DNA of 64,000 bases, taken from positions 14,069 to 78,068 of the forward strand of contig JAZDJR010000035.1 in assembly GCA_043803815.1 (NCBI GenBank), in the 5' to 3' direction. Below are positions 3,995 to 33,422 of the stretch, in pieces (position 1 is the first letter of the stretch; each line of letters starts with the position of its first letter). Origin of the DNA: Candidatus Micrarchaeota archaeon. GTDB lineage: Archaea; Iainarchaeota; Iainarchaeia; Iainarchaeales; JAGVWC01. The notes beneath the pieces were generated by a model, which saw only the letters and a program-made list of their open reading frames with translations, was not told the origin of the DNA and searched no databases. The translations under genes were made by a program, and so were the position numbers.

Positions 3995-5422
3995 CTAAAC
4001 AGCGGATTTAATCCGGTTTTTGAGTTCAATGGCGCCGTTAAAAACGCTTTTTGGAATCAGGTTGGCTTTGTAAAGCGTTCCCACAAGTTTTCCGGCGGTT
4101 CCGTAATTGCGCAATAGCCGGTGAATATGATATTTTTTTCGGACTTCGTCCTGAATGCGCGGAATTTTTTTTTCTATGTAACGCCGCTGCTCGGGGGAAA
4201 TATTGGGTGTCCGGATAATGATGCGTTCGGCTTTGGTGTTGAATTCGTTGAGGTATTGCTCGGGCTGTATCAAAAAAAGGTCGCGTTCCTTGGCCTGAGC
4301 ATAACCTTCTGTCCCGCTATAGGGGACATAGTTGTTAAAGCTGGCCCAGCGGACGGGGTGGCGCAACGCAAAGTCGAAGGTATCTTCCACGTCCTGAAAT
4401 GTCTGGTCGGGAAAGCCCAGCATCATATTGAGATGCACATCGAATCCGGCATCGATGGCCGCCTTAATCGCGGCGTCAATCGTCTGCATGGTTTCTCCTT
4501 TTTTGATTAACTTAAGCATGCGTTCGTTGCCGACCTCGACGCCAAACGCAATGGACTCAAATCCGGCCGAGCGCATGCGCTTGAGCAGGGCAGGGGAAAC
4601 GCGGTCGCAGCGCACCCCTTGCGGAATGTTGAATACCATTCCTTTCAGGTTGTTTTGGGCAATCAAATCGCATATTTTGACGACCCGTTCCTGATTAAGC
4701 GTGAAATTATCGTCCAAAAACTCGATGCGGCGGTATCCTTTTTCGTACCAGTATTTGATTTCTTCAAGGACGCTTTCAGGGGAGCGAAAACGCCACCAGT
4801 TCCCGCTGACCACTGAAACCGCGCAAAAGGTGCAGTGTTCAGGGCATCCTCTGGAAGTCAAAACTACCATTGCGGGATACCAGTATTTTTTCAGCTCGAA
4901 TTTTTCATAGCGCGGCCAGGGAATGGATTCGATGTCGCGCCGAAACGGACGGTCCCCCGTAAAAATAATCTTGCCTTTTTCGCGGTAAAGCAGGCCTTTG
5001 ATTTCGGAAAATGGCTTTCCCCGACAGAGTTCCAATAGGGAATCTTCGCCTTCCCTTACTATTCCAAAATCGATGGCGGAGCAGTCTTCCAAAACTTTTT
5101 CTTTTTCTGTCGAAATATGGGCCGCTCCGACGGCAATCGGTATTTTGGGAAAGGCGGACTTTATTTTTTGGATAAGGGCATAACTGTCTTTATAGCGGTA
5201 GCTTTTTGTGGCAATGCCGAGCAAATCGGGCTTAAACGAATCGATTTTTTTAACCAGGTCGTCGAACGAATAGCCCAGATTCAAATCAAGCGTGTCGTAT
5301 TCAACTCCGTTTGCGGACAAATATTCGCCAAGATAGCCGAGCGCCAGATCCGGAACATCGCCCGGTTTGTACGTGCTATTGTAATACGCAACCGGAACCA
5401 GCAGCACCCGTTTAAAACGCAT
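3995..5422 (-). CDS. Cobalamin-binding radical SAM enzyme #1 (class B-like)
   Basis: N-terminal B12-binding Rossmann region (PDLALGYLG...GAAHIS...REGE), RGCPEHCTFC (CxxxCxxC), FLDDNF and FGVEVG. ATG at 5422 preferred over the ORF-track start at 5506. Confidence 0.9.
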   Translation of the reverse strand: MRFKRVLLVPVAYYNSTYKPGDVPDLALGYLGEYLSANGVEYDTLDLNLGYSFDDLVKKIDSFKPDLLGIATKSYRYKDSYALIQKIKSAFPKIPIAVGAAHISTEKEKVLEDCSAIDFGIVREGEDSLLELCRGKPFSEIKGLLYREKGKIIFTGDRPFRRDIESIPWPRYEKFELKKYWYPAMVVLTSRGCPEHCTFCAVSVVSGNWWRFRSPESVLEEIKYWYEKGYRRIEFLDDNFTLNQERVVKICDLIAQNNLKGMVFNIPQGVRCDRVSPALLKRMRSAGFESIAFGVEVGNERMLKLIKKGETMQTIDAAIKAAIDAGFDVHLNMMLGFPDQTFQDVEDTFDFALRHPVRWASFNNYVPYSGTEGYAQAKERDLFLIQPEQYLNEFNTKAERIIIRTPNISPEQRRYIEKKIPRIQDEVRKKYHIHRLLRNYGTAGKLVGTLYKANLIPKSVFNGAIELKNRIKSAV

Positions 5423-11962: not shown

Positions 11963-13543
11963 TCAATTCCGGATGATAACCTTATGCAGCAGCCATTTGA
12001 CTTTCGCATTCTGGTTTAAGAATTTTTTAAAACTGACCAGAAAAAAGATTTCCAGGTCAAGGCTGAAAAAATTGTGCTTAAAGCGCTGTTTTAGCCATTC
12101 GCCGAGCAGTTTTCGCAAAAACGGGTAATGCGGCGCGTGTTTTTGCCGGGTATAGCTGAAATACAGACTGGCCATGTTTTGCAGGCGGATGACTCGGCCC
12201 GGATTTTTCAGCCAGGGCAGGCTTTTTTCCGATATAAACGTGCTGCTGTCAAGGCTGCTTTTGGCCCACTCAAAAAGCGATTGCGGCTCGTGAAAGCCGC
12301 TTTTTTTGCATTCCTGGTAAAGCGGGGTTCCCGGATACGGGCGAAACAGGCCCGGCCCGAGCAAAACGGATTCGGGATAGATTCCGGCAAGCTGGTCCAT
12401 CAATTGCAGGGTTTGGACCATGTCTTTTTCGGTTTCGCCGGGAATTCCGATCATGAAAAAACAAATCGGGATTATCTGGAATTTTTTGCAGCGATGAACG
12501 GCTTTGATGCTCATGTCGACCGTAATTCCCTTGTTCAGGATTTTTAATACGCGGTCGGAGCCGGATTCGATTCCGATGCGAAGCGATGTCAATCCGCTTT
12601 TTACGTATCGCTGCAGGTGCTGGTCGGTCAAAAAATTCGGCCGCACCAAATTGTCGGCGCGGATATCGGCTTCCCAGGTCAGCTTGAATTTTTTCGCTTT
12701 CAAATTGTCCACGATGGCGTCAACGCGCTCCAGGTTTCCGAAGAAAAAATCGTCCACGAACCAGATGTGGTCGATGTTGTGTTTGGAAACCAATTCGTTG
12801 ATGGCCGCGTTTACCTTTTCGGCGCTTAGCGGCCGCCATCGCTTGAACGCAAACATAGTGTTGGTGCAAAAGCTGCAGGCATACGGACAGCCGCGGCTTG
12901 AGGAAATATCGAGCACGATTGCTTTTCGCTCTTTTTTGGTTTTTTCGTCATACAACGGGCGCACCAGGTATTTTTCCAAATCCAAAAGCGAATAATCGGG
13001 CTTGGCCATGTCTTTTTCTTCGACCGGGGCGGATAGCCCGCCGTTGACAATGCCGGATTTTTTTTTGTACAATAGGCCCGGCGTTTTTTTCAGGCTTTTT
13101 TTCGACTGCAAAAATCCCAAAAGGCTGGCCATGGCCAGTTCGCCTTCTCCGGCAATGACAAAATCGATGTTCGGGTCTTTTAGGGTCTGTTCGGGAAACA
13201 AGGTGGGGTGCATTCCGCCCCAAACGATTTTCTTTTGTGGAAATCGTTTTCTCAGTTTTTTGGTCCACAAATAGGCATGTTTGAGGTCGGGGGTCATGAC
13301 GGAAAAGGCAATCAGCCGGGCATCCTTACATTCCCTGCACAGACGCAAAAAGCCTTCCTTTTTGGGGTATACGCGGCAATCGAACAATTTGACGTTATAC
13401 CCTTTTTCTTTTAAGTAACTGCCCAAAGCAAGTGTTCCGATTGGAACACACTTATAGTCGGCCAGTACTTCGAAATCGGCGCCGGGAAAATCCGGCATGA
13501 CGGAAGGCGTGATAAGGATGATGTCGGTTTTTGGTTTTTCCAT
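11963..13543 (-). CDS. Cobalamin-binding radical SAM enzyme #2
   Basis: PIGTLALGSYL, WGGMHPT, GEGE, SRGCPYACSFC, FVDDFF and GIESGS. Confidence 0.92.
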   Translation of the reverse strand: MEKPKTDIILITPSVMPDFPGADFEVLADYKCVPIGTLALGSYLKEKGYNVKLFDCRVYPKKEGFLRLCRECKDARLIAFSVMTPDLKHAYLWTKKLRKRFPQKKIVWGGMHPTLFPEQTLKDPNIDFVIAGEGELAMASLLGFLQSKKSLKKTPGLLYKKKSGIVNGGLSAPVEEKDMAKPDYSLLDLEKYLVRPLYDEKTKKERKAIVLDISSSRGCPYACSFCTNTMFAFKRWRPLSAEKVNAAINELVSKHNIDHIWFVDDFFFGNLERVDAIVDNLKAKKFKLTWEADIRADNLVRPNFLTDQHLQRYVKSGLTSLRIGIESGSDRVLKILNKGITVDMSIKAVHRCKKFQIIPICFFMIGIPGETEKDMVQTLQLMDQLAGIYPESVLLGPGLFRPYPGTPLYQECKKSGFHEPQSLFEWAKSSLDSSTFISEKSLPWLKNPGRVIRLQNMASLYFSYTRQKHAPHYPFLRKLLGEWLKQRFKHNFFSLDLEIFFLVSFKKFLNQNAKVKWLLHKVIIRN

Positions 13544-25631: not shown

Positions 25632-26315
25632 TTAAAACCGTTTTCCAATCCCGATTTCGCGCAAAAGCATTTTCACAAAATACAGGCCGGTGTCGACGGT
25701 TTTGGCGCCGCTTTTTCCGCCGATGCGGTCGCCTTCAAACGTCGGGAATTCCTTTATTTTGTATCCGAGCTTGAGCGCGCGCATGGACATCTGGTATTCG
25801 ATGGCAAAGCCCTGCGCGTCCAGGTGCAAAGCCGAAATCTTTTTTTTGTTGACGCCGCGAAAGCCGTTGATGGAATCGGTTAGGTTCCCGCCGAAAAAAA
25901 AGTTGGATAATCCCGTGAAAAACCTGTTGCCCCATCCGCGGTAGGGAACCAGCTGCAAATGGTCGTCCGCCCGCGCGCCTTTGATGAAGCGCGAAGCGAT
26001 GACCAGGTCAAAGCCCTTGTCCAAAAAGTCCGCCATTTTGGGGATGTCGGAAGGGTTCTCGTTCCCGTCGGGAGAGAAAAAAATCACATTGTCGCACTTG
26101 GCTTTTTTCAGTGCGATGCGAAAGGCTTCCCCGCGGCCGAGTTTTTCCTGCACGATGACCGGCATTTTTTTTTGGCGGAAAAATTCCGCGGTTCCGTCCT
26201 TGGACTGGCCGTCGATTACCAAAACCTCGTCGACTTTTTTGACGGGAATTTTCGGAAAGACTTTGGCCACGCCTTGGATTTCGTTGCGCGTCAAAATGAT
26301 TAAAGTAACGCTCAT
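25632..26315 (-). CDS. GT2 polyprenol-phosphate glycosyltransferase (DPM1-like)
   Basis: LTRNE, IDGQSKDGT, GRGEA, PDGNE, DLVIASRF and DSINGFR. Confidence 0.88.
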   Translation of the reverse strand: MSVTLIILTRNEIQGVAKVFPKIPVKKVDEVLVIDGQSKDGTAEFFRQKKMPVIVQEKLGRGEAFRIALKKAKCDNVIFFSPDGNENPSDIPKMADFLDKGFDLVIASRFIKGARADDHLQLVPYRGWGNRFFTGLSNFFFGGNLTDSINGFRGVNKKKISALHLDAQGFAIEYQMSMRALKLGYKIKEFPTFEGDRIGGKSGAKTVDTGLYFVKMLLREIGIGKRF

Positions 26316-26376
26316 TTCTTCACGACTAAAAAATTATACCCATATATTTAAATGGATAAAGAAGAGGGCGTTTCTT

Positions 26377-27831
26377 ATGAAGATTAATCGCGCGGTTTTC
26401 GTCAATCCGTATCCGTATTATGCCGCAGGCATCAACGAGGCAACCGCCTATCCGCCGCTCGGGCTTGCGTATTTTGCCTCTTTTTTGGCCAAAAAAGGCG
26501 TGAAGTGCCGGGTAATTGACGCCAATATCCTGGCCAAATCCAACGAATCCGTTTTGGCCGAAATCGAGGAATTCAAGCCGCAGCTGGTCGGGATTTCGAC
26601 GAATGTAGTCACCGCCCAGGCGGGAGAAGAGCTGGCCAAAATGATCAAGCAAAAAGACCCGAAAACAATCGTGGTGTTCGGCGGCCCTTATGCGACCAAC
26701 GTGGTTGAAAAATTGCTGAACCGCTCGGGAGCGGACTGCATTATCCGCGGCGAAGGCGAAATGACCCTGCTTGAGTTCGTCAAAAAAGGCGGGAACGTTT
26801 CCACCATCAAAGGGGTATCCTACCTGAAAAAAGGCAGATTAATCAGCAATCCGGATGCGGAAAAAATCCAAAACCTGGACGAACTGCCCTATCCCGCGTA
26901 CGATTTGTTGCCGCCGCTTTCCATGTATCATTCGCGCTCGCGCTACACGCCGATGGCGCCGATGATGATGACGCGCGGCTGCCCGTACGGCTGCATTTTT
27001 TGCTCGAGCGCGCACACCGCCAACAACATCATGGGCGCGGCGACCCGCAAGCGCTCGCCGAAAAATATCGTCGGAGAAATCCGCATGTTGTCCAAAAAAT
27101 ACGGCGTGCGCCAAATCGATTTTTTGGACGACAATTTTTCCCAGGATATGGAATACGCAAACAAGGTCATGGACGCGATAATAAAGGCCGACCTTGGCGT
27201 GGTGTACAATTTCCAAAACGGCCTTCGGGCCGACCGGCTGGACGAGCCCTTGATCATCAAAATGAAAAAAGCGGGGGTTGTTAAAGTCGGCATCGGGGTC
27301 GAATCCGGAGAGCAGGCCATAGTGGATGCCGCCAAAAAATCGCTGAACCTGGAAAAGGTGCGAACCGCAATCGGGTTATTGCGAAAGCACGGCATTATTG
27401 TCATCGGCTTTTTCATGCTGGGATTGCCCGGCGAGACCGCTAAAACAATGGAAAAAACAATCCGATTCGCGCTGGAAACCAATCCGCACATGGCCAATTT
27501 TTCCGTTGTGCTGCCTTTACCCGGAACCGAGTTGTATCGCATGGTCGAAAAAGCCGACGCGTTTGTAAAGGACGATACGACCGCGGGCGCGATGACGGGA
27601 TTTTACTCCCAGATGTTTTATTACAAAATGGGCGAAGTCACGCCTGAGTTGGTGTTTAAATACCAAAAAAAAGCGTACAACGAGTTTTATTTTCGGCCAT
27701 CCAAACTGCTGGACTTGATGACCACAATCCAGTCCTGGAACGAATTCAAGTGGACCTTAAACTCCGCCAAAAACATCGCGGCAGCGATTTTTAAAATGCC
27801 GTTTGGAAAAGCAGCATCCGCCGAGCACTGA
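26377..27831 (+). CDS. Cobalamin-binding radical SAM enzyme #3
   Basis: YPPLGLAYFA, FGGPYAT, RGEGE, TRGCPYGCIFC, FLDDNF and GVESG. ATG at 26377 lies about 25 nt after TATATTTAAA. The ORF-track extension to 25981 overlaps the opposite-strand GT2. Confidence 0.92.
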   Translation: MKINRAVFVNPYPYYAAGINEATAYPPLGLAYFASFLAKKGVKCRVIDANILAKSNESVLAEIEEFKPQLVGISTNVVTAQAGEELAKMIKQKDPKTIVVFGGPYATNVVEKLLNRSGADCIIRGEGEMTLLEFVKKGGNVSTIKGVSYLKKGRLISNPDAEKIQNLDELPYPAYDLLPPLSMYHSRSRYTPMAPMMMTRGCPYGCIFCSSAHTANNIMGAATRKRSPKNIVGEIRMLSKKYGVRQIDFLDDNFSQDMEYANKVMDAIIKADLGVVYNFQNGLRADRLDEPLIIKMKKAGVVKVGIGVESGEQAIVDAAKKSLNLEKVRTAIGLLRKHGIIVIGFFMLGLPGETAKTMEKTIRFALETNPHMANFSVVLPLPGTELYRMVEKADAFVKDDTTAGAMTGFYSQMFYYKMGEVTPELVFKYQKKAYNEFYFRPSKLLDLMTTIQSWNEFKWTLNSAKNIAAAIFKMPFGKAASAEH

Positions 27832-27896: not shown

Positions 27897-29213
27897 CTAA
27901 TTTTTACCGAAATCCAGCGGCTTGTCCTGAACGTATTTTAGGCCAAGTGCAAGCGCGGTTTCGGCTTTGGACAGTTCGGTTCCCAAATACAGGGCGTGGC
28001 TGGTCGTTCCGACGATGTTTTCGCGGATAATCTGGTCGCGCAAGGAAAGGGCGGTTTTTCCCGAATACATGAACAAGAGTTCGTTTCCAGGAGACAAGTG
28101 CTCAACTACGATTTCACCCTGCGAAAGATAAATCACAAAAGAGCCCCGAAAGTCGCGCACGAGTTGGGGTGTCGGGACCCATTGCCCAAAATTTTTTTCC
28201 ACAATACTTTGGGTTTTTTCAAGTTCCGCTAACGGAACAAAAAAATCAAGGACCGTAACGGCAATGGCGACGGTTTTAAAAGAATACTCCGAAGCGGAAA
28301 AAACGGATTGAAGCGCGGCAAGCAGTTGGGCAACAGCTTGCGCATCTGCGGAGGAAAGAACCGCCTGGATTAAAAGGCCGTCATCCAGCGATTGCACTCG
28401 GGTTTCTATTTTTTTTTCCAAAAAGGAAAGGTTAACCAAACTTGGAGTCGAATTTTCCGAAAGCAAAGCGTTTGAAAGTTCTTTTTTCCACTGCTTTGCA
28501 AGAGCATCACAGTCCTTGGCCGAAAAGGAAAAAAAATCGGGAACATTGAACGGTTTTTTGGACGGAAGATAAATACAAAAAACGGGATTCAGCAAAAAGC
28601 GTTTTTTTTCATTCGAGTGGCCGAATTTGATAAGGGAATCAAGGCCCAATATCCACGGTTCCATAAAATCCGAGCCGCGAAAAACGAATCCCGCGGGTTC
28701 GCCGAAAAATTTTTTGGCAAACGCGGATTTTTTTTTGAATACCTGTTTTTCGCGCCGCGATTCGGGTTCGGTAAAACGCAGTTCGTTAAACGGCTGCTGG
28801 ATAAAGTCCCACTGATAAACTAAAACGCTTTGGCGCAATTGCTGCAACGCGTTTTCGGAAATGTCGGCTTCTATATAACCTTCCACCGGACTGGTTACCC
28901 GCCAAACATCAATTCCGGTGTCCTTAGTTTTTCCCCTGACAAAGCCGTGTTCAAAAAAATCCCGCAATACAATGCCTGATTTTCCCATGTCCGAACCCGT
29001 AATCACCAGATGCTTGATTTTCGGATTGGATAGCAAGGAACGAACCAAGGTATCCAGTCCCCGCTCGGCATTGTACAGGTTTCCGATAATGCCGAAATCT
29101 TTTTTGGAAAGGCGCGACGCCACCATTTCGACCGGCGTCCACAAAGTTACGATGGCAACCAAAGGGTTGTCCCCGAAAACCAGAGTATTGGTTTTGGATT
29201 CTGCAGGGTTCAT
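27897..29213 (-). CDS. MtrA-like domain + degenerate thymidylate-synthase-like domain + DUF4346 fusion
   Basis: The N-terminus (AIVTLWT...IIGNLYNAERGLDTLVRSLLSNPKIKHLVITGSD) resembles MtrA. The C-terminus (DFRGSFVI...YSGKTA...SHALYLGTELSKAETALALGLKYVQD) resembles DUF4346. The middle aligns loosely to ThyA without its catalytic residues. Confidence 0.7.
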   Translation of the reverse strand: MNPAESKTNTLVFGDNPLVAIVTLWTPVEMVASRLSKKDFGIIGNLYNAERGLDTLVRSLLSNPKIKHLVITGSDMGKSGIVLRDFFEHGFVRGKTKDTGIDVWRVTSPVEGYIEADISENALQQLRQSVLVYQWDFIQQPFNELRFTEPESRREKQVFKKKSAFAKKFFGEPAGFVFRGSDFMEPWILGLDSLIKFGHSNEKKRFLLNPVFCIYLPSKKPFNVPDFFSFSAKDCDALAKQWKKELSNALLSENSTPSLVNLSFLEKKIETRVQSLDDGLLIQAVLSSADAQAVAQLLAALQSVFSASEYSFKTVAIAVTVLDFFVPLAELEKTQSIVEKNFGQWVPTPQLVRDFRGSFVIYLSQGEIVVEHLSPGNELLFMYSGKTALSLRDQIIRENIVGTTSHALYLGTELSKAETALALGLKYVQDKPLDFGKN

Positions 29214-29278
29214 GAAAAAACCCTTGGGGCAATATTTTTTAAACCGCTTGAAATTTCGGCAGGGGGTAATTTTTTGTT

Positions 29279-29782
29279 TTATAACTGAATGGCAAATCGT
29301 TTCCCCAACACGGGGGTAAGATGGTAAAAACTGATTTCCGAATTTTTTTCAAGCGTTATTTTTTCGATTGATTTTTCAGGAATTTTCCCGTTTATTTCAA
29401 ACAAAAAATATCCTTTTTTCCCGTCGATTTTTTCAACCAGATAGCCCGACGGCGTTTTTTTCAGGCCGATGCCCGGAACGCGCTTAAATGCGTCAAGCAA
29501 GGTTTCACCTTCATGGGCTTTAATCACATGCGAGTCGCCAATTGCATGGAAAATTTTTTTAATGGTCTGCAGGTACGCGGTATTAAGCCTAAGCACATGC
29601 ATATTGCCTATTTTTTTGCGTTCGACAATGCGGTTTTTTTCGAGGATTCGGACGTGTTTTAGGGCGACGGGAACCGCGATTCCCACTTCCTTCGCAATTC
29701 CGTTGATGCTGTATTCATTGTCAAAAAGCAGGCGCACGATTTTTCTGCGATTCTCGTTTCCCAAAATATTGAACAGGTCCAA
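29279..29782 (-). CDS. ArsR-type winged-helix transcription factor fused to a DUF4430 (transcobalamin beta-domain-like) domain
   Basis: wHTH: DLFNILGNENRRKIVRLL...SINGIAKEVGIAVPVALKHVRILEKNRIV. The C-terminus (GETLLDAFK...GYLVEKIDG...FLFEINGK) aligns with the DUF4430 lipoprotein at 33012. TTG start at 29782 lies 5 nt after GGTG. Confidence 0.8.
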   Translation of the reverse strand: MDLFNILGNENRRKIVRLLFDNEYSINGIAKEVGIAVPVALKHVRILEKNRIVERKKIGNMHVLRLNTAYLQTIKKIFHAIGDSHVIKAHEGETLLDAFKRVPGIGLKKTPSGYLVEKIDGKKGYFLFEINGKIPEKSIEKITLEKNSEISFYHLTPVLGKRFAIQL

Positions 29783-29801
29783 AAAAACACCGTTATCCTT
29801 C

Positions 29802-29819
29802 GGATAATAATTATTATCC
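29802..29819. promoter_or_regulatory. Perfect 18-bp palindrome GGATAATAATTATTATCC, candidate operator
   Basis: Exactly equals its own reverse complement. It lies between the divergent regulator and transporter operon, with an extra TTATCC half-site at 29793-29798. Confidence 0.75.
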
Positions 29820-29820
29820 A

Positions 29821-29838
29821 AAAAAAGGTTTTTAAAAG
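29821..29838 (+). promoter_or_regulatory. BRE/TATA promoter (AAAAAAGG-TTTTTAAAAG) of the DUF4430 operon; the TATA is also readable on the minus strand
   Basis: A purine tract followed by TTTTTAAAA about 45 nt upstream of the 29882 start, immediately downstream of the palindrome. Confidence 0.55.
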
Positions 29839-29881
29839 CGTATTGGAACCCCAATGAATACGATTTTAGGGGTTTTGAAAT

Positions 29882-31867
29882 TTGGAAAAAAAAATCGCGT
29901 TAACTATTAGCTTTTTACTGCTGGTCACATTGGCCAACGCGTATCCTTTGCCGGCATCGGATTCACACATTACAAGCGCGCTTTCGTATCTTAAAAGCGT
30001 GCAGACCGCCGACGGGTGCATCGGGGGTTTTGCAACGAGTGCATGGGTAATTGATTCGGTTGCCGCGGCGGGACAAAACCCTTCTTCCGTGTCCTGGCAA
30101 AATTCCGGCAAGTCACTCGTGGACTGCATCAAAAAAGATGCCGCTTGGTTTAATGATTCCGGCCGAAGCGCAACGGATTTTGAACGCCAGATTTTGGCCG
30201 TTGTCGCGACCGATGAGGACCCCGCAAATTTTAACGGTTTGGATTATGTTACCAAACTCAAGTCTTTTTTTGACGGAACCCAAATGGGCCAAAGCGCTTA
30301 CCTAAACGATGACATGTGGGGCATCATGGCCTTGCGTGCCGCGGGAGAACCGGCTTCTTCAGCGCAAATTCAAGGCATGGCAACGTTTTTGGAATCCAAC
30401 CAAGGAGCGGACGGTTCGTTCAGTTGGGGCATCGGGCAGGCCGGCGACCCGGACGATACCGCGGACGCCATAATGGCTTTAATTTCCGCAGGAAAAATGC
30501 CGGACAGCGCATCGGTTCAAAACGGCTTGGCTTTTTTAAAAACCCAACAGGACTCCAATATCGCGGGAATACAGTCATTTGGTCTTGTCAATCCCGATTC
30601 GACTTCTCACGCGGTGGATTCCATTGTATCGGCGGGACAAGACCCGACCGATGCAGCTTGGCAGGAAAACGACACGAATCCAGTCGAATATTTATTGTCT
30701 TGGCAGCAGCCGAACGGCGGTTTTAGCAATCCGTACGCAAACCCCCCCGGTTCATCAAGTGAATGGACCACGGCCGGCGCGCTGAACGCGTTGCTTGGAA
30801 AGCCTTATCCTGTCAAAATCCGGACTATTGCGCAGAATTTGCAGATGCCGGTTCGCATTGAAGGCGCCGATGCCGTCATTGTCGACACAACGGTTGTATT
30901 GCCGCAGTCTTTTGAATTCAGCGCTACGAGCGGAACGCATTACTCCCTGCACGAGCCGAGCTTGCTGATGGGTTTGCTTGAAACCGCAAGCGAAAACGGT
31001 TTTGCGGTCGGCGTAAGCGACCAGTGGTATCCCGCGCTCGGTTTTTACGTCAACGAAATCGCGGACCAGCCTGCCGAAGGGCTGAACGGATGGAATGTAC
31101 GCGTGGACAATCGTTCAATCGGTTCTTTTTCTTCCGACGCATTCATTTGGCAGTCCAGTTCGCCGCCCGCTTTGCCGCATCACGACGTTACGTGGTATTT
31201 TGGAAGCTGGGACGCCAATGCGCTTCGGTTAACGAGCAATTCAACAAGCGTTCAAACCGACGAAAACGTGCAGGTCAAGGTGGAATATTTTTCCGAACAG
31301 GATAACGCGTGGTATCCGGTGCAAGGCGCAACCGTCAAAGGTGCGGCCCAAGACCAGCTGACGGACGCGCAGGGAAACGCGACGATTCGGTTTGCTTCGG
31401 GTGGAACCCAAAACGTTTTTGCCGAAAAACCGGGCCAAAAGTACTTTCGCAGCAAAAAGCTGGCTTTTGCGGTGCAAGGACCGGAACAATCCTCAACGCA
31501 AGTCCGATTGATTGGAACCCTTGTTCCGGCCGTGTCGTTTTCGGTTTCGCCAAGCCAACTCAATTTCGGCTCGTTTGGACCGGGATATTTGGTTCATGCC
31601 AATAGCCTGGAAGTGAAAAATACGGGTTCGTGGAACCTGCAAATTAAGGCGAGTATCAATGATACGAACGGCACATTGTATTCTTCGGGTTTATTGTTAA
31701 ACGACACCCCGTGGAACCAGTTTTCGCTGGCATTAAACGCCCAGCCGCCGGGTTTTTTGAACACTGCCGTTGTGACTTCCGGATTGCAGGTGCCACCGGA
31801 TTTTTCGCAAACCGGAACCCAAAACGGAATCGTTACTTTTTGGGCGACCGCTACTCAGGTTCCGTAA
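29882..31867 (+). CDS. Secreted transcobalamin-architecture protein: prenyltransferase-repeat alpha-barrel + DUF4430 + Ig-like domains
   Basis: Signal peptide (MEKKIALTISFLLLVTLANA), then QxxDG-type repeats (YLKSVQTADG, FLESNQGADGSF, YLLSWQQPNGGF). A DUF4430-like segment follows (GFYVNEIAD...GWNVRVD...DVTWYF), then PVQGATV...TDAQGNA and SVSPSQLNFG beta-sandwiches. Confidence 0.75.
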   Translation: MEKKIALTISFLLLVTLANAYPLPASDSHITSALSYLKSVQTADGCIGGFATSAWVIDSVAAAGQNPSSVSWQNSGKSLVDCIKKDAAWFNDSGRSATDFERQILAVVATDEDPANFNGLDYVTKLKSFFDGTQMGQSAYLNDDMWGIMALRAAGEPASSAQIQGMATFLESNQGADGSFSWGIGQAGDPDDTADAIMALISAGKMPDSASVQNGLAFLKTQQDSNIAGIQSFGLVNPDSTSHAVDSIVSAGQDPTDAAWQENDTNPVEYLLSWQQPNGGFSNPYANPPGSSSEWTTAGALNALLGKPYPVKIRTIAQNLQMPVRIEGADAVIVDTTVVLPQSFEFSATSGTHYSLHEPSLLMGLLETASENGFAVGVSDQWYPALGFYVNEIADQPAEGLNGWNVRVDNRSIGSFSSDAFIWQSSSPPALPHHDVTWYFGSWDANALRLTSNSTSVQTDENVQVKVEYFSEQDNAWYPVQGATVKGAAQDQLTDAQGNATIRFASGGTQNVFAEKPGQKYFRSKKLAFAVQGPEQSSTQVRLIGTLVPAVSFSVSPSQLNFGSFGPGYLVHANSLEVKNTGSWNLQIKASINDTNGTLYSSGLLLNDTPWNQFSLALNAQPPGFLNTAVVTSGLQVPPDFSQTGTQNGIVTFWATATQVP

Positions 31868-31880
31868 CGGAGAAAAAATA

Positions 31881-32465
31881 ATGCATGCCACAATTTTTTT
31901 TTTAATCGGCATCTTGTTGCTATTGGGCTGTTCATCATTTGCGGTTGGGCTTGGCGTAAATCCCGCGTATCTGGAATTCAAGATTTATTCCGAAAAAGAT
32001 TTGGAACAATCGCTTTTTGTGATTAACACGGAAAATGCGTCGCTTGATTTTAACGTGTATGCGGTGGATTACTGGTTTTTAATCGAGCCCAATCATTTTT
32101 CGCTGCCTGCGGGAAAAAAACAGGAAGTTTTGTTGCGGATGAAATTTTCCCCAAGTCCGCAGGAAACACAAACGGAAGTGCGGGTCGTCGCAAGCGAACC
32201 CGGCCAAAACCAGGTTAAAACCGGAATTAAGATGCCGGTCAAAATCCTGCAATTACAAGACGCGACGCTTACTGATCCAAACGATTCCAATTCTTCAGAA
32301 CAAAACCCGCAAAAAGCCTTGACTGGTTTTTTTAGCCTGAACGGGTCATCCTCGCTTTTAGGTTTATTGGTTATCGGGCTTTGCGCTTTGGTTGTTGGAC
32401 TGGCCAAAGCAAAGGGATTAAAAGGAAAAATAGGCATAAAATATGCGAAATACGATGAAAAATAA
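31881..32465 (+). CDS. Secreted Ig/PapD-like protein with C-terminal membrane anchor
   Basis: Signal peptide, then LGVNPAYLEF...VINT...IEPNHFSLPAGKKQEV, a low-complexity linker, and LTGFF followed by a TM helix and basic tail. Confidence 0.6.
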   Translation: MHATIFFLIGILLLLGCSSFAVGLGVNPAYLEFKIYSEKDLEQSLFVINTENASLDFNVYAVDYWFLIEPNHFSLPAGKKQEVLLRMKFSPSPQETQTEVRVVASEPGQNQVKTGIKMPVKILQLQDATLTDPNDSNSSEQNPQKALTGFFSLNGSSSLLGLLVIGLCALVVGLAKAKGLKGKIGIKYAKYDEK

Positions 32466-33015
32466 ATCCAAAAATGCGCTGACTTTTTTCGGCGGACTGG
32501 TCCTGACGAGTGCGTATCGCCTGCTTCGAATCTTTCCCAACAACGACCCCATCATGGGTTTTGCACTTCCAATCGCCCGCAACCAGAAATGGTGGCAGGC
32601 GTTTTTGTTTCCCGCCTTGGCCATGGCCTGTTTTGACGTATTGACCGCCAAAGTGGGGCCATGGACGGTTATTACCGCGGTTCTTTACGGCACAATCGGG
32701 GTAATGTTTCATTTTTATTTCAGGAAAAAAACCAAGGTCGGCCTTGGCACGTACGCCAAATTAAGCGTCGTGGGCGTTTTGGCATTCGATTTTTTTACCG
32801 GCCCCATTATGACCAGTTACCTGTTTAAAATCCCGTTTTCCGTTGCCTTAATCGGCCAGATTCCGTTTACTTTGCTTCACCTGGCCAGCGCGGTAACCAT
32901 TACCGTTTTATTGGCGCCCGTTCTTGACCCTTCAGTTAGAAGCCTGCCGGCCGAATTAAAACACAGGATTAAAAGCCGGTTTTTTTCTGGCCAATCATCC
33001 GGGGTCATACGATGA
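32443..33015 (+). CDS. ECF-type S-component, CbrT-like (putative cobalamin)
   Basis: About 190 aa with about 6 hydrophobic segments. RLLRIFPNNDPIM resembles the PNxxP motif of CbrT-type S-components, and GPWT and IPFTLLH also fit. It is flanked by DUF4430 genes. The start may be 32455. Confidence 0.7.
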   Translation: MRNTMKNKSKNALTFFGGLVLTSAYRLLRIFPNNDPIMGFALPIARNQKWWQAFLFPALAMACFDVLTAKVGPWTVITAVLYGTIGVMFHFYFRKKTKVGLGTYAKLSVVGVLAFDFFTGPIMTSYLFKIPFSVALIGQIPFTLLHLASAVTITVLLAPVLDPSVRSLPAELKHRIKSRFFSGQSSGVIR

Positions 33016-33422
33016 AATTCCAGAATGCGATTTTTTGGGGATTTTTGGTTTTTTTTCTTTTGGCCGGCTGCATCCAGCAGCAGCAATCCCAAAACGCACC
33101 GCCCGGCTCCCAAACGCAAACGGTTGCGCTTTCGCTGAAATACACGGATGAAAACGGAACCGTGCTGCTTGAAAAAAATATTTCCGTTGCCAAGGGAACC
33201 AATGCGTTTGATGCCATCAAAGAAAGCGTTCCGCTTGATTTTGAAACGACCTCCTTTGGACCATTCATCAAAAGCATCGGCGGAGTCTCTCCTTCTTCCG
33301 ATTATTATTTGGCGCTTTACGTTAATGGCCAGTATGCGGACCGCGGAATCGCGGGATATACGCTTTCGGAAGATACTAGTATAGAATGGAAAACGGAAAA
33401 AATCCAAAGCGCGCCGGTTTGA
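33012..33422 (+). CDS. DUF4430 lipoprotein (putative cobalamin-binding)
   Basis: Lipobox LLAGC, then GTNAFDAIK...FGPFIKSIGG...YYLALYVNGQYADRGIAGYTL...IEW. ATGA overlap with the S-component gene. Confidence 0.82.
   Translation: MKFQNAIFWGFLVFFLLAGCIQQQQSQNAPPGSQTQTVALSLKYTDENGTVLLEKNISVAKGTNAFDAIKESVPLDFETTSFGPFIKSIGGVSPSSDYYLALYVNGQYADRGIAGYTLSEDTSIEWKTEKIQSAPV

Follow-up and report, generated by a model that had tools for sequence, protein, structure and literature searches.

A conserved palindrome as the probable operator of an ArsR-type regulator with a transcobalamin-like domain in a Candidatus Micrarchaeota archaeon

Introduction

Winged helix-turn-helix (HTH) proteins of the ArsR-like type fused to a transcobalamin-like SLBB domain were described in archaea by Burroughs, Balaji, Iyer and Aravind in 2007, who proposed for them a role as one-component factors that respond to B12, to its precursors or to some other soluble ligand (PMC1796856). 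The part of that paper available to us gives a Methanosarcina example and holds no operator, target promoter or experiment, and our literature search, which left subscription journals mostly uncovered, found no operator, target or experiment for the SLBB-ArsR class. Here we analyzed a 64,000-nt stretch of DNA from a Candidatus Micrarchaeota archaeon (assembly GCA_043803815.1, contig JAZDJR010000035.1, positions 14,069 to 78,068 of the forward strand; hereafter the window), in which an 18-bp palindrome lies between the gene of such a regulator and a divergent operon that may serve corrinoid uptake. As far as the available text of the 2007 paper allows the comparison, the present regulator has the same architecture, in which an ArsR-type winged HTH carries an intracellular beta-grasp domain of the transcobalamin clade, and keeps the same company of secreted SLBB and alpha/alpha-toroid proteins (PMC1796856); it differs in coming from Iainarchaeota, whose carriers are also labelled Altiarchaeota and Hydrothermarchaeota by sources, and in having a defined candidate operator with its own geometry.

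Two regulators of Pyrococcus furiosus, known to us from partial texts of the papers, resemble the present system in where their sites lie. TrmBL1 recognizes the palindrome TATCAC-N5-GTGATA, represses from downstream of the TATA box by blocking the recruitment of RNA polymerase, activates from upstream of the transcription factor B (TFB) recognition element (BRE) and TATA box, and controls uptake systems; in vitro, all nine templates with a downstream site were repressed and activation was seen with two of three templates carrying an upstream site (PMC4706686). The palindromic site and the short spacer are alike in both cases, and the position-dependent sign and the control of uptake genes would be, whereas TrmBL1 has a TrmB-family HTH, a sugar-binding domain and an unrelated motif and is a global regulator with dozens of sites; the present locus would combine both geometries on one TATA box within one divergent region. 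TFB-RF1 (PF1088) activates a transporter operon and its own operon from the palindrome TCTG-N5-CAGA just upstream of BRE/TATA, has a very small regulon, recruits TFB at weak BREs and has no known ligand domain (PMC5937170). The palindrome directly upstream of BRE/TATA and the (here putative) transporter operon are shared with our locus, but the BRE-like sequence of the present rightward promoter (AAAAA, 2 nt before the TATA box) does not seem weak by the Pyrococcus consensus VRAAA given there (PMC5937170). Bidirectional BRE-TATA-BRE promoters of P. furiosus have a single near-symmetric TTTAAA-type TATA box with BRE-like sequences on both sides, from which two transcripts with starts ~50 bp apart are driven, and according to the accessible text mostly give antisense noise (PMC6640164). 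At the present locus, by comparison, both directions would serve genes, and the operator sits on one of the two predicted starts.

By sequence, the nearest solved HTHs are those of the Pyrococcus regulators Phr (2p4w; E 1e-6) and SurR (2quf/2qlz; E 0.03), which differ in having other C-terminal domains (no SLBB) and other signals (heat, redox/sulfur). At its own promoter and at heat-shock promoters, Phr binds over the start site and represses; whether SurR activates or represses depends on where its site lies. In bacteria, B12-dependent control of B12 uptake genes is exerted by cobalamin riboswitches, RNA elements of the leader; they are the functional analogue of the system considered here, in which control would be by a protein.

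Results

An earlier sequence-only reading of this DNA had singled out the perfect 18-bp palindrome GGATAATAATTATTATCC at 29802-29819, together with a third half-site that forms a second inverted pair, and had held that the motif would have to recur upstream of orthologous HTH-DUF4430 genes. The palindrome and the second pair are present as claimed, and the motif was found upstream of the regulator gene in all 30 of the loci with upstream sequence that we examined (Iainarchaeota). The regulator occurs in 30 of the 196 genomes of the order, the window's own genome counted, and in one genome of another order of the same class; the regulators of the orthologous loci are 34-66% identical. Two genomes were left out of the comparison, namely G013 (L015/L080), where the match begins at residue 35-42 inside a 343-aa open frame, and G142, where 57 residues remain at a contig end. 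All coordinates are positions within the window, and the genome to which it belongs comprises 1,083,160 bases and is 85.6% complete. The elements of the module, in which H1, H2 and H3 denote the half-sites, are as follows.

29802-29819: operator core, the perfect palindrome (9+9, no spacer), from sequence, conservation and position weight matrix (PWM).
29803-29818: conserved 16-mer GATAAT-N4-ATTATC, half-sites H1 and H2, in 30 of 30 orthologous loci.
29792-29798, minus strand: third half-site H3, GGATAAC (TTATCC at 29793-29798), from sequence and conservation.
29829-29837: single near-symmetric TATA box TTTTTAAAA with the TTTAAA core at 29831-29836, from sequence and ortholog spacing.
29820-29828, plus strand: A-rich BRE-like stretch AAAAAAAGG between operator and TATA box, predicted from the sequence to serve the rightward promoter.

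Read in the direction of the regulator gene, all 30 loci have the same order of elements, that is, a TTTAAA-type TATA box, 12-14 nt, GATAAT-N4-ATTAYC, 5-6 nt and GRTAAT(A), followed by a leader of variable length and the start codon. In the window, 12 nt (29819-29830) separate the 16-mer from TTTAAA, H3 is a direct repeat of H1 that starts 21 bp past H1 toward the regulator gene, and TTATCC at 29793-29798 is followed by ttc and GGATAA, giving the second inverted pair. In 30 of 30 loci, a TATA-like element with the word TTAA begins 17-20 nt ahead of the 16-mer (in L037 there is another at -23), and some loci carry a second TTAA word closer to the operator; there is one TTTAAA-type box per intergenic region at this fixed spacing in all 30. 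An A at -25 and a T at -10 relative to the 16-mer are conserved, and the orthologs read GAAAC-like, on the same strand, at the position of the BRE-like stretch. The spacing to the TATA box is fixed, whereas anything from 33 to 107 nt separates the 16-mer from the start codon; the operator thus goes with the TATA box and with neither of the start codons. H3 matches GRTAAT in at least five of six bases in 26 of the 30 loci and in all six in 20, and in these 26 loci H3 follows the 16-mer after 6 nt (22 loci) or 5 nt (4 loci). The arms of the 16-mer are complementary at four or more of six positions in 23 of the 30 loci and at five or more in 16. The sequence between and around the conserved blocks is not conserved, and a fourth half-site, looked for 10 nt after H3, is not conserved either.

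The sites were chosen by their likeness to the window motif, and the same picking was applied to 1050 control windows of the same loci. A picking score of at least 15 was reached by 20 of 28 true upstream regions versus 0 of 1050 controls, and a score of at least 14 by 24 of 28 versus 7 of 1050. In each ~3.5-kb locus the operator was the only strong site. A PWM built from 28 other genomes with the window excluded (16.4 bits) ranked the window site first of all positions in its own 1.08-Mb genome, at 23.0 bits. The runner-up match, GATATTGATTATTACC at C35:10649-10664 (20.5 bits; ~3.4 kb before the window's first base), was rejected as a second site and put down to chance; it lies inside a 724-aa membrane-protein open reading frame (ORF) with Ile/Leu/Thr-rich codons and has no third half-site. 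The genome scan for GGATAA-N6-TTATCC that the sequence-only reading had suggested returned exactly one occurrence in the whole 1,083,160-base genome, the window's. With up to two mismatches, the window holds 7 such sites versus 2.39 +/- 1.58 in 100 shuffles, two of which reach 7; with up to one mismatch, the whole genome holds 8, and a reversed control pattern gives 1. The bare 18-mer palindrome is not beyond chance: perfect palindromes with arms of at least 9 number 21 in the genome, 3 of them in the window, and 3-14 (mean 10.6) in 10 first-order Markov simulations of the genome. The site is more than such a chance palindrome because it is conserved in the orthologs and takes the top PWM rank in its own genome. 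Overall, a dyad-symmetric motif is conserved upstream of the regulator orthologs and is rare elsewhere in the genome, and the palindrome is very probably a conserved operator.

Among metagenomic relatives, a PWM score of at least 14 bits was found in 36 of 78 upstream regions (28 of 64 distinct ones) versus 2 of 1225 control windows. In other metagenomic subfamilies the motif is weaker or variant, and in some of them the palindrome sits between the TATA box and a leaderless ATG. A distant subfamily with the N-terminus MIFKALSSK (L100, L106-L112, L117, L130, L136, L137, L142, L146) lacks GATAAT-N4-ATTAYC; at 40-50 nt ahead of its regulator start there is another kind of inverted repeat, GAGTTAT-N7-ATAACTC in type, and its regulator appears to follow a co-directional upstream gene. 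Scans with the exact pattern GRTAAY-N4-RTTAYC in five genomes and with the relaxed RRTAAY-N4-RTTAYY in five more gave counts at or below those of the reversed-pattern control. Eleven candidate loci from these scans were examined (L167-L172, L174, L188-L191); two hold real target sites (L172, L189), and the other nine were rejected for having no operon homolog nearby. L174 (G118), one of the rejected, lies inside a membrane-protein ORF in codons for LLITIIT, and hydrophobic coding sequence can mimic the operator motif.

Whether the palindrome can be promoter DNA depends on where the regulator begins. The two features concerned are these.

29279-29782, minus strand: regulator gene, 167 aa, start TTG at 29782-29780, from Pfam, ortholog alignment and models.
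29788-29791, minus strand: GGTG Shine-Dalgarno-like element, 5 nt from the TTG start, from sequence.

The long ORF at 29279-29854 (minus strand) has 191 aa, its frame being open from 29854. Orthologs align only from residue 21-25 of this ORF, longer alignments run across stop codons, and most orthologs have in-frame stops upstream. Once the ORF had been shortened to begin at TTG 29782, the full-length orthologous matches ran from residue 1 or 2 (27 of the 29 other rows); the G013 match begins at residue 35, and contig ends truncate two others. The N-terminus reads M/V/L-D-x-F in all 29 loci examined, own locus included, which is the position of TTG 29782. GGTGG- or GGTGA-like elements stand at the position of the GGTG in many orthologs, and GGTG is enriched ~3-fold at -15 to -6 of 326 ORFs of the own genome. 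The public protein cluster P0065 has 180 aa, a length that implies a start at the minus-strand TTG 29819-29821, overlapping the palindrome; judged by the alignments, this public gene model is most likely too long. With the start at TTG 29782, the palindrome is therefore promoter or leader and not coding sequence. The next gene downstream on the same strand (27897-29213, minus) encodes 438 aa with a PterinBD-DUF4346 domain and a weak MtrA-like N-terminus.

The promoter geometry was then read from the position of the TATA box. In archaea, the usual distance from the TATA centre to the start is ~25 nt. From the centre at 29833.5, starts are predicted near 29808 leftward and near 29859 rightward, ~50 bp apart. 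The predicted leftward start falls inside the palindrome (centre 29810.5), as the sequence-only reading had expected if the same TATA box is read leftward, and H3 would lie at about +10 to +15. Relative to the predicted rightward start, the operator spans about -42 to -59, just beyond the BRE-like stretch, and so would adjoin the putative BRE/TATA of the rightward operon on its upstream side, again as that reading had proposed. By analogy with the BRE-TATA-BRE promoters of P. furiosus, we infer that one TATA box may serve both directions. The site lies downstream of the TATA box for the regulator gene in 30 of 30 loci and upstream of it for the divergent or stand-alone targets at the own locus and in three other genomes (G031, G140 and G121); in geometry alone, this placement corresponds to that of archaeal dual regulators of the TrmBL1/SurR type. 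A second inverted repeat, TAAAAGCGTATT / AATACGATTTTA at 29833-29844 / 29857-29868 (12 nt, 92% complementary, 12 nt apart), begins within the TATA box and runs to near the predicted rightward start; inspection of the two closest relatives by eye showed no clear counterpart. In 29200-30400, no Rfam family was matched, the cobalamin riboswitch included, and a scan for sigma-70 promoters and intrinsic terminators, which has no bearing on an archaeon, gave nothing.

To the right of the TATA box lies an operon of four tightly packed genes.

29882-33422, plus strand: predicted target operon, from Pfam and homology.
29882-31867, plus strand: secreted (signal-peptide) alpha/alpha-toroid protein, SQHop_cyclase-like, start TTG 29882.
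31881-32465, plus strand: Ig-like membrane-anchored protein.
32443-33015, plus strand: DUF6580 membrane protein, energy-coupling factor (ECF) S-component-like.
33012-33422, plus strand: DUF4430 lipoprotein.
29868-29872, plus strand: AGGGG Shine-Dalgarno-like element, 9 nt from TTG 29882, with an implied leader of about 20-23 nt, from sequence and inferred.

The likeness of DUF6580 to ECF S-components comes from an Atlas lead and from the G031 homolog, which matches Pfam ECF_trnsprt at 26 bits, below the cut-off; through these weak leads the rightward operon can be taken for a transporter operon. DUF4430 is the C-terminal domain of transcobalamins, according to the part of the source available to us (PMC4350170). 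A signal-peptide gene stands divergent from the regulator in 28 of 29 loci, and tblastn identified the divergent gene as homologous to the toroid gene in 18 loci and to the DUF4430 gene in a further 3. Copies of the operator that stand alone, with no regulator gene beside them, were found in the three regulator-positive genomes named above, 12-14 nt upstream of the TATA box of DUF6580(-DUF4430) genes. In G031, where the regulator lacks a divergent partner, GATAATGATTGTTATC precedes TTTAAATA by 12 nt, and the ATG of a DUF6580-DUF4430 operon follows 21 nt after the box. In G140, the order is ATTATCC, atttg, GATAATAAACATTACC, 13-14 nt and TTATAAAA, H3 included, with the ATG 21 nt after the box; the target is again a DUF6580-DUF4430 operon, directly after a gene for a major facilitator superfamily (MFS) transporter. 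In G121, GGTAACGCTCATTACC lies 12 nt upstream of the TATA box of a DUF6580 gene.

DUF6580 is present in 66 of the 196 genomes of the order versus 30 for the regulator, which means that the uptake genes frequently have either no regulation or regulation of another kind. By family, DUF6580 was counted in 19 and the regulator in 2 of the 23 genomes of f23, and in 14 and 3 of the 38 genomes of f10. The 30 best DUF6580 loci, 17 from regulator-negative and 13 from regulator-positive genomes, were surveyed for the site, and none of the 17 regulator-negative loci carries one of at least 14 bits. In the f20 loci L046, L047 and L012, a tRNA-like stretch (by reading) lies ~60-200 nt upstream of a convergent DUF6580 gene, followed by a conserved ATTAAGTTTAAA-type promoter without operator and then the DUF6580-DUF4430 operon.

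The regulator consists of an ArsR-type winged HTH (residues ~1-81) and a DUF4430/transcobalamin-beta-like domain (~85-160), and the assignment to HTH plus DUF4430 made from the sequence alone was borne out, both Pfam families scoring above their cut-offs: HTH_5 matched at 32.7 bits (cut-off 22; E 7e-8) and DUF4430 at 24.8 bits (E 3e-5; residues 118-177 of the long ORF), the latter with the same match in the whole-genome scan. NCBIfam HTH_metalloreg matched at 46.9 bits, under its 55-bit cut-off, and the partial NCBIfam matches to Phr and SurR, 31.9 and 16.9 bits versus cut-offs of 320 and 250, do not place the protein in either family. The full-length model (predicted local distance difference test, pLDDT, 79) has the ArsR helix-wing-helix order including the fifth helix, with helices at 3-6, 10-19, 26-33, 37-49 and 68-81 and strands at 53-58 and 61-66. 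Its top Foldseek matches were CzrA, HlyU, SmtB, BigR and NolR (E ~2e-5; template modelling score, TM, by target 0.7-0.8), and the N-terminal part has the ArsR/SmtB-type winged-HTH fold. Across the wider family, the stretch ISVPVA-x-KH in the region of the recognition helix shows little or no variation. Since the 167-aa sequence has no cysteine, the regulator does not sense metals or redox state through thiolates; its sensing module is the domain added at the C-terminus. The search with the whole protein had picked up the HTH only, and the C-terminal domain was therefore folded alone. For the model of the C-terminal 85 residues (pLDDT 87.9), the 17 best Foldseek rows were made up of 3u7z and of transcobalamin, haptocorrin and intrinsic factor beta domains (TM by query 0.61-0.67; E 0.007-0.63), the transcobalamin structures being 5no0 (apo) and 5np4 (with cyanocobalamin). 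A search with the sequence profile of this domain found no solved relative. By the model and the profile match, the domain is a beta-grasp domain of the transcobalamin-like SLBB/DUF4430 kind. A homodimer prediction for two copies of the regulator scored 0.24 against a mark of 0.42, which is no verdict either way.

The genome encodes four proteins with the Pfam B12-binding domain PF02310, three of them within the window, at the following positions.

26446-26778, plus strand: PF02310 match in the ORF 25981-27831.
13121-13459, minus strand: PF02310 match.
5027-5362, minus strand: PF02310 match.

The nearest one, ~2 kb from the regulator, is a B12-binding radical-SAM-like protein. Searches of the 85.6%-complete genome found no NrdJ, CobD/CbiB or CobS. 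A corrinoid is the most likely ligand, because the operon encodes both halves of a transcobalamin-like binder together with an ECF-S-like membrane protein and because four B12-binding-domain proteins are encoded and no CobD/CbiB or CobS was found.

Discussion

We propose that the palindrome and H3 together serve as operator for the one-component regulator encoded next to them, in which a transcobalamin-beta-like (DUF4430/SLBB) domain is joined to an ArsR-type HTH. To the left, the bound regulator would cover its own start site and block the recruitment of RNA polymerase, which would amount to autorepression; to the right, bound upstream of BRE/TATA, it would stimulate the probable corrinoid-scavenging operon; and a ligand, most likely a B12-type corrinoid, would change its binding to DNA. 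This full reading, in which the binding of the regulator to the operator, the start sites, the signs of control and the ligand are things that we infer, seems to us rather probable. Autorepression is likely by comparison with TrmBL1. Activation of the rightward operon is, by the same kind of comparison, favored over repression, clearly though not overwhelmingly so, mainly because the stand-alone sites keep their position upstream of the TATA box where there is no regulator gene to repress and also because of the position rule of TrmBL1 and TFB-RF1. The positive control of uptake genes that had been suggested from the sequence fits the stand-alone copies upstream of the TATA box of DUF6580 genes in three genomes, so that the earlier regulatory interpretation is supported in part; DNA binding, which it had assigned to the apo-regulator, may belong to either ligand state.

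Several observations pull the other way. The genomes compared are related, so the counts of loci overstate independence, and in two of the 30 loci (L049 and L052) the left half is non-palindromic and reads as a direct copy. The DUF4430 match is barely above the Pfam cut-off (24.8 versus 23.8), and the Foldseek E-values for the sensor domain are weak. As to the ligand, a reviewer of the 2007 paper remarked, in the text available to us, that SLBB ligands need not be B12 (PMC1796856), and in a genome that is 85.6% complete missing biosynthesis genes prove little. As to the sign, the operator comes to within a few bp of the BRE, where occlusion of TFB would repress the operon, and one of the three upstream-site templates of TrmBL1 showed no effect in the data available to us, so the position rule is not absolute (PMC4706686). 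Among the 13 regulator-positive DUF6580 loci, 1 has a stand-alone site, 3 have only the regulator's own site and 9 have none within the locus, although for 2 of these 9 (own genome and G109) the same operon does have the site at a more upstream position; and in family f20, the convergent DUF6580-DUF4430 operon has its own promoter without operator.

The alternative that survives best keeps the operator and the regulator and makes the latter a plain co-repressor, the ligand-bound form of which would shut both promoters when the nutrient is replete, by crowding TFB and the TATA-binding protein (TBP) off BRE/TATA or by spreading from the three half-sites. An operator edge 12-14 nt from the TATA box and a few bp from the BRE is what such a mechanism would use, the nearest sequence relatives of the HTH (Phr and the ArsR/SmtB proteins) are repressors, and with many DUF6580 genomes lacking the regulator (66 versus 30 of 196) and siteless promoters in existence, no activator is needed in principle. 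However, each of the three stand-alone operators is located entirely on the upstream side of BRE/TATA, with any extra half-site reaching farther from the promoter, whereas the unambiguous repressor sites, those of the regulator's own gene, leaderless subfamilies too, lie downstream of the TATA box. The TrmBL1 templates, as far as the source at hand reports them, divide in the same manner, with repression in nine of nine cases from downstream and, from upstream, activation in two and no effect in one (PMC4706686). We hold co-repression, by either route, to be possible but unlikely.

Activation need not involve contact with TFB or TBP. On a symmetric TATA box the pre-initiation complex would assemble either way round, and a regulator that covers one start would hand the box to the uptake genes, shutting its own gene or, at the stand-alone sites, unproductive antisense transcription. 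Such a direction switch is a speculative variant of the activation that we favor, to which we give little credence.

It is improbable that the site is bound by another factor or is basal promoter, that is, an AT-rich TATA-like element of a leaderless regulator mRNA. The core is AT-rich, the 28.5 nt between the centre of the palindrome and the TTG start would suit the TATA box of a leaderless transcript, and for part of the genes in the own genome TATA-like words are most frequent at -35 to -26. Yet the distance to the start codon varies by locus as given above with the upstream TATA distance fixed, a GGTG Shine-Dalgarno-like element stands between site and start, and the conserved outer G/C and the dyad symmetry are not features of a TATA box; the site also co-occurs with the regulator gene and is missing from all 17 DUF6580 loci of regulator-negative genomes.

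That the palindrome is coding sequence of accidental symmetry, whether in the 180-aa model from TTG 29821 or in the 191-aa ORF from 29854, we think very improbable; the frame is indeed open from 29854 and the public cluster has the longer model, but the orthologs align from residue 21-25 of the long ORF, have in-frame stops upstream and all 29 begin M/V/L-D-x-F. A chance palindrome, of which ~10 perfect 18-mers are expected in a genome of such size and composition, or an RNA hairpin in the regulator leader with no DNA-binding role is hardly credible, since the half-sites are kept as sequence (TAA/TTA invariant or nearly so) and not as pairing, each half keeping its consensus with the arms complementary at five or more of six positions in only 16 of 30 loci, there is no Rfam match, and the conservation controls (0 of 1050; 2 of 1225) speak against it.

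The kind of element is thus familiar, and it is set apart by the sensor domain, the merging of both geometries on one TATA box and the lineage. DPANN archaea such as the present organism must scavenge cofactors. To our knowledge, how this scavenging is regulated in them is not known, and we know of no cobalamin riboswitches in archaea. The locus supplies a precise 27-bp candidate binding site, its target promoters and a consensus, GATAAT-N4-ATTAYC followed after 5-6 nt by GRTAAT, along with a prediction from its geometry, namely that the regulator represses itself and activates its targets through one site on a TATA box used in both directions. It is also a compact natural example for how the direction of an archaeal promoter is set, and with it the 2007 prediction of this regulator class gains its first testable DNA target. 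Should corrinoid levels indeed be read by the transcobalamin-like domain, the regulator would play in archaea the part that riboswitches have in bacteria, as the first protein there to sense B12 and control its uptake.

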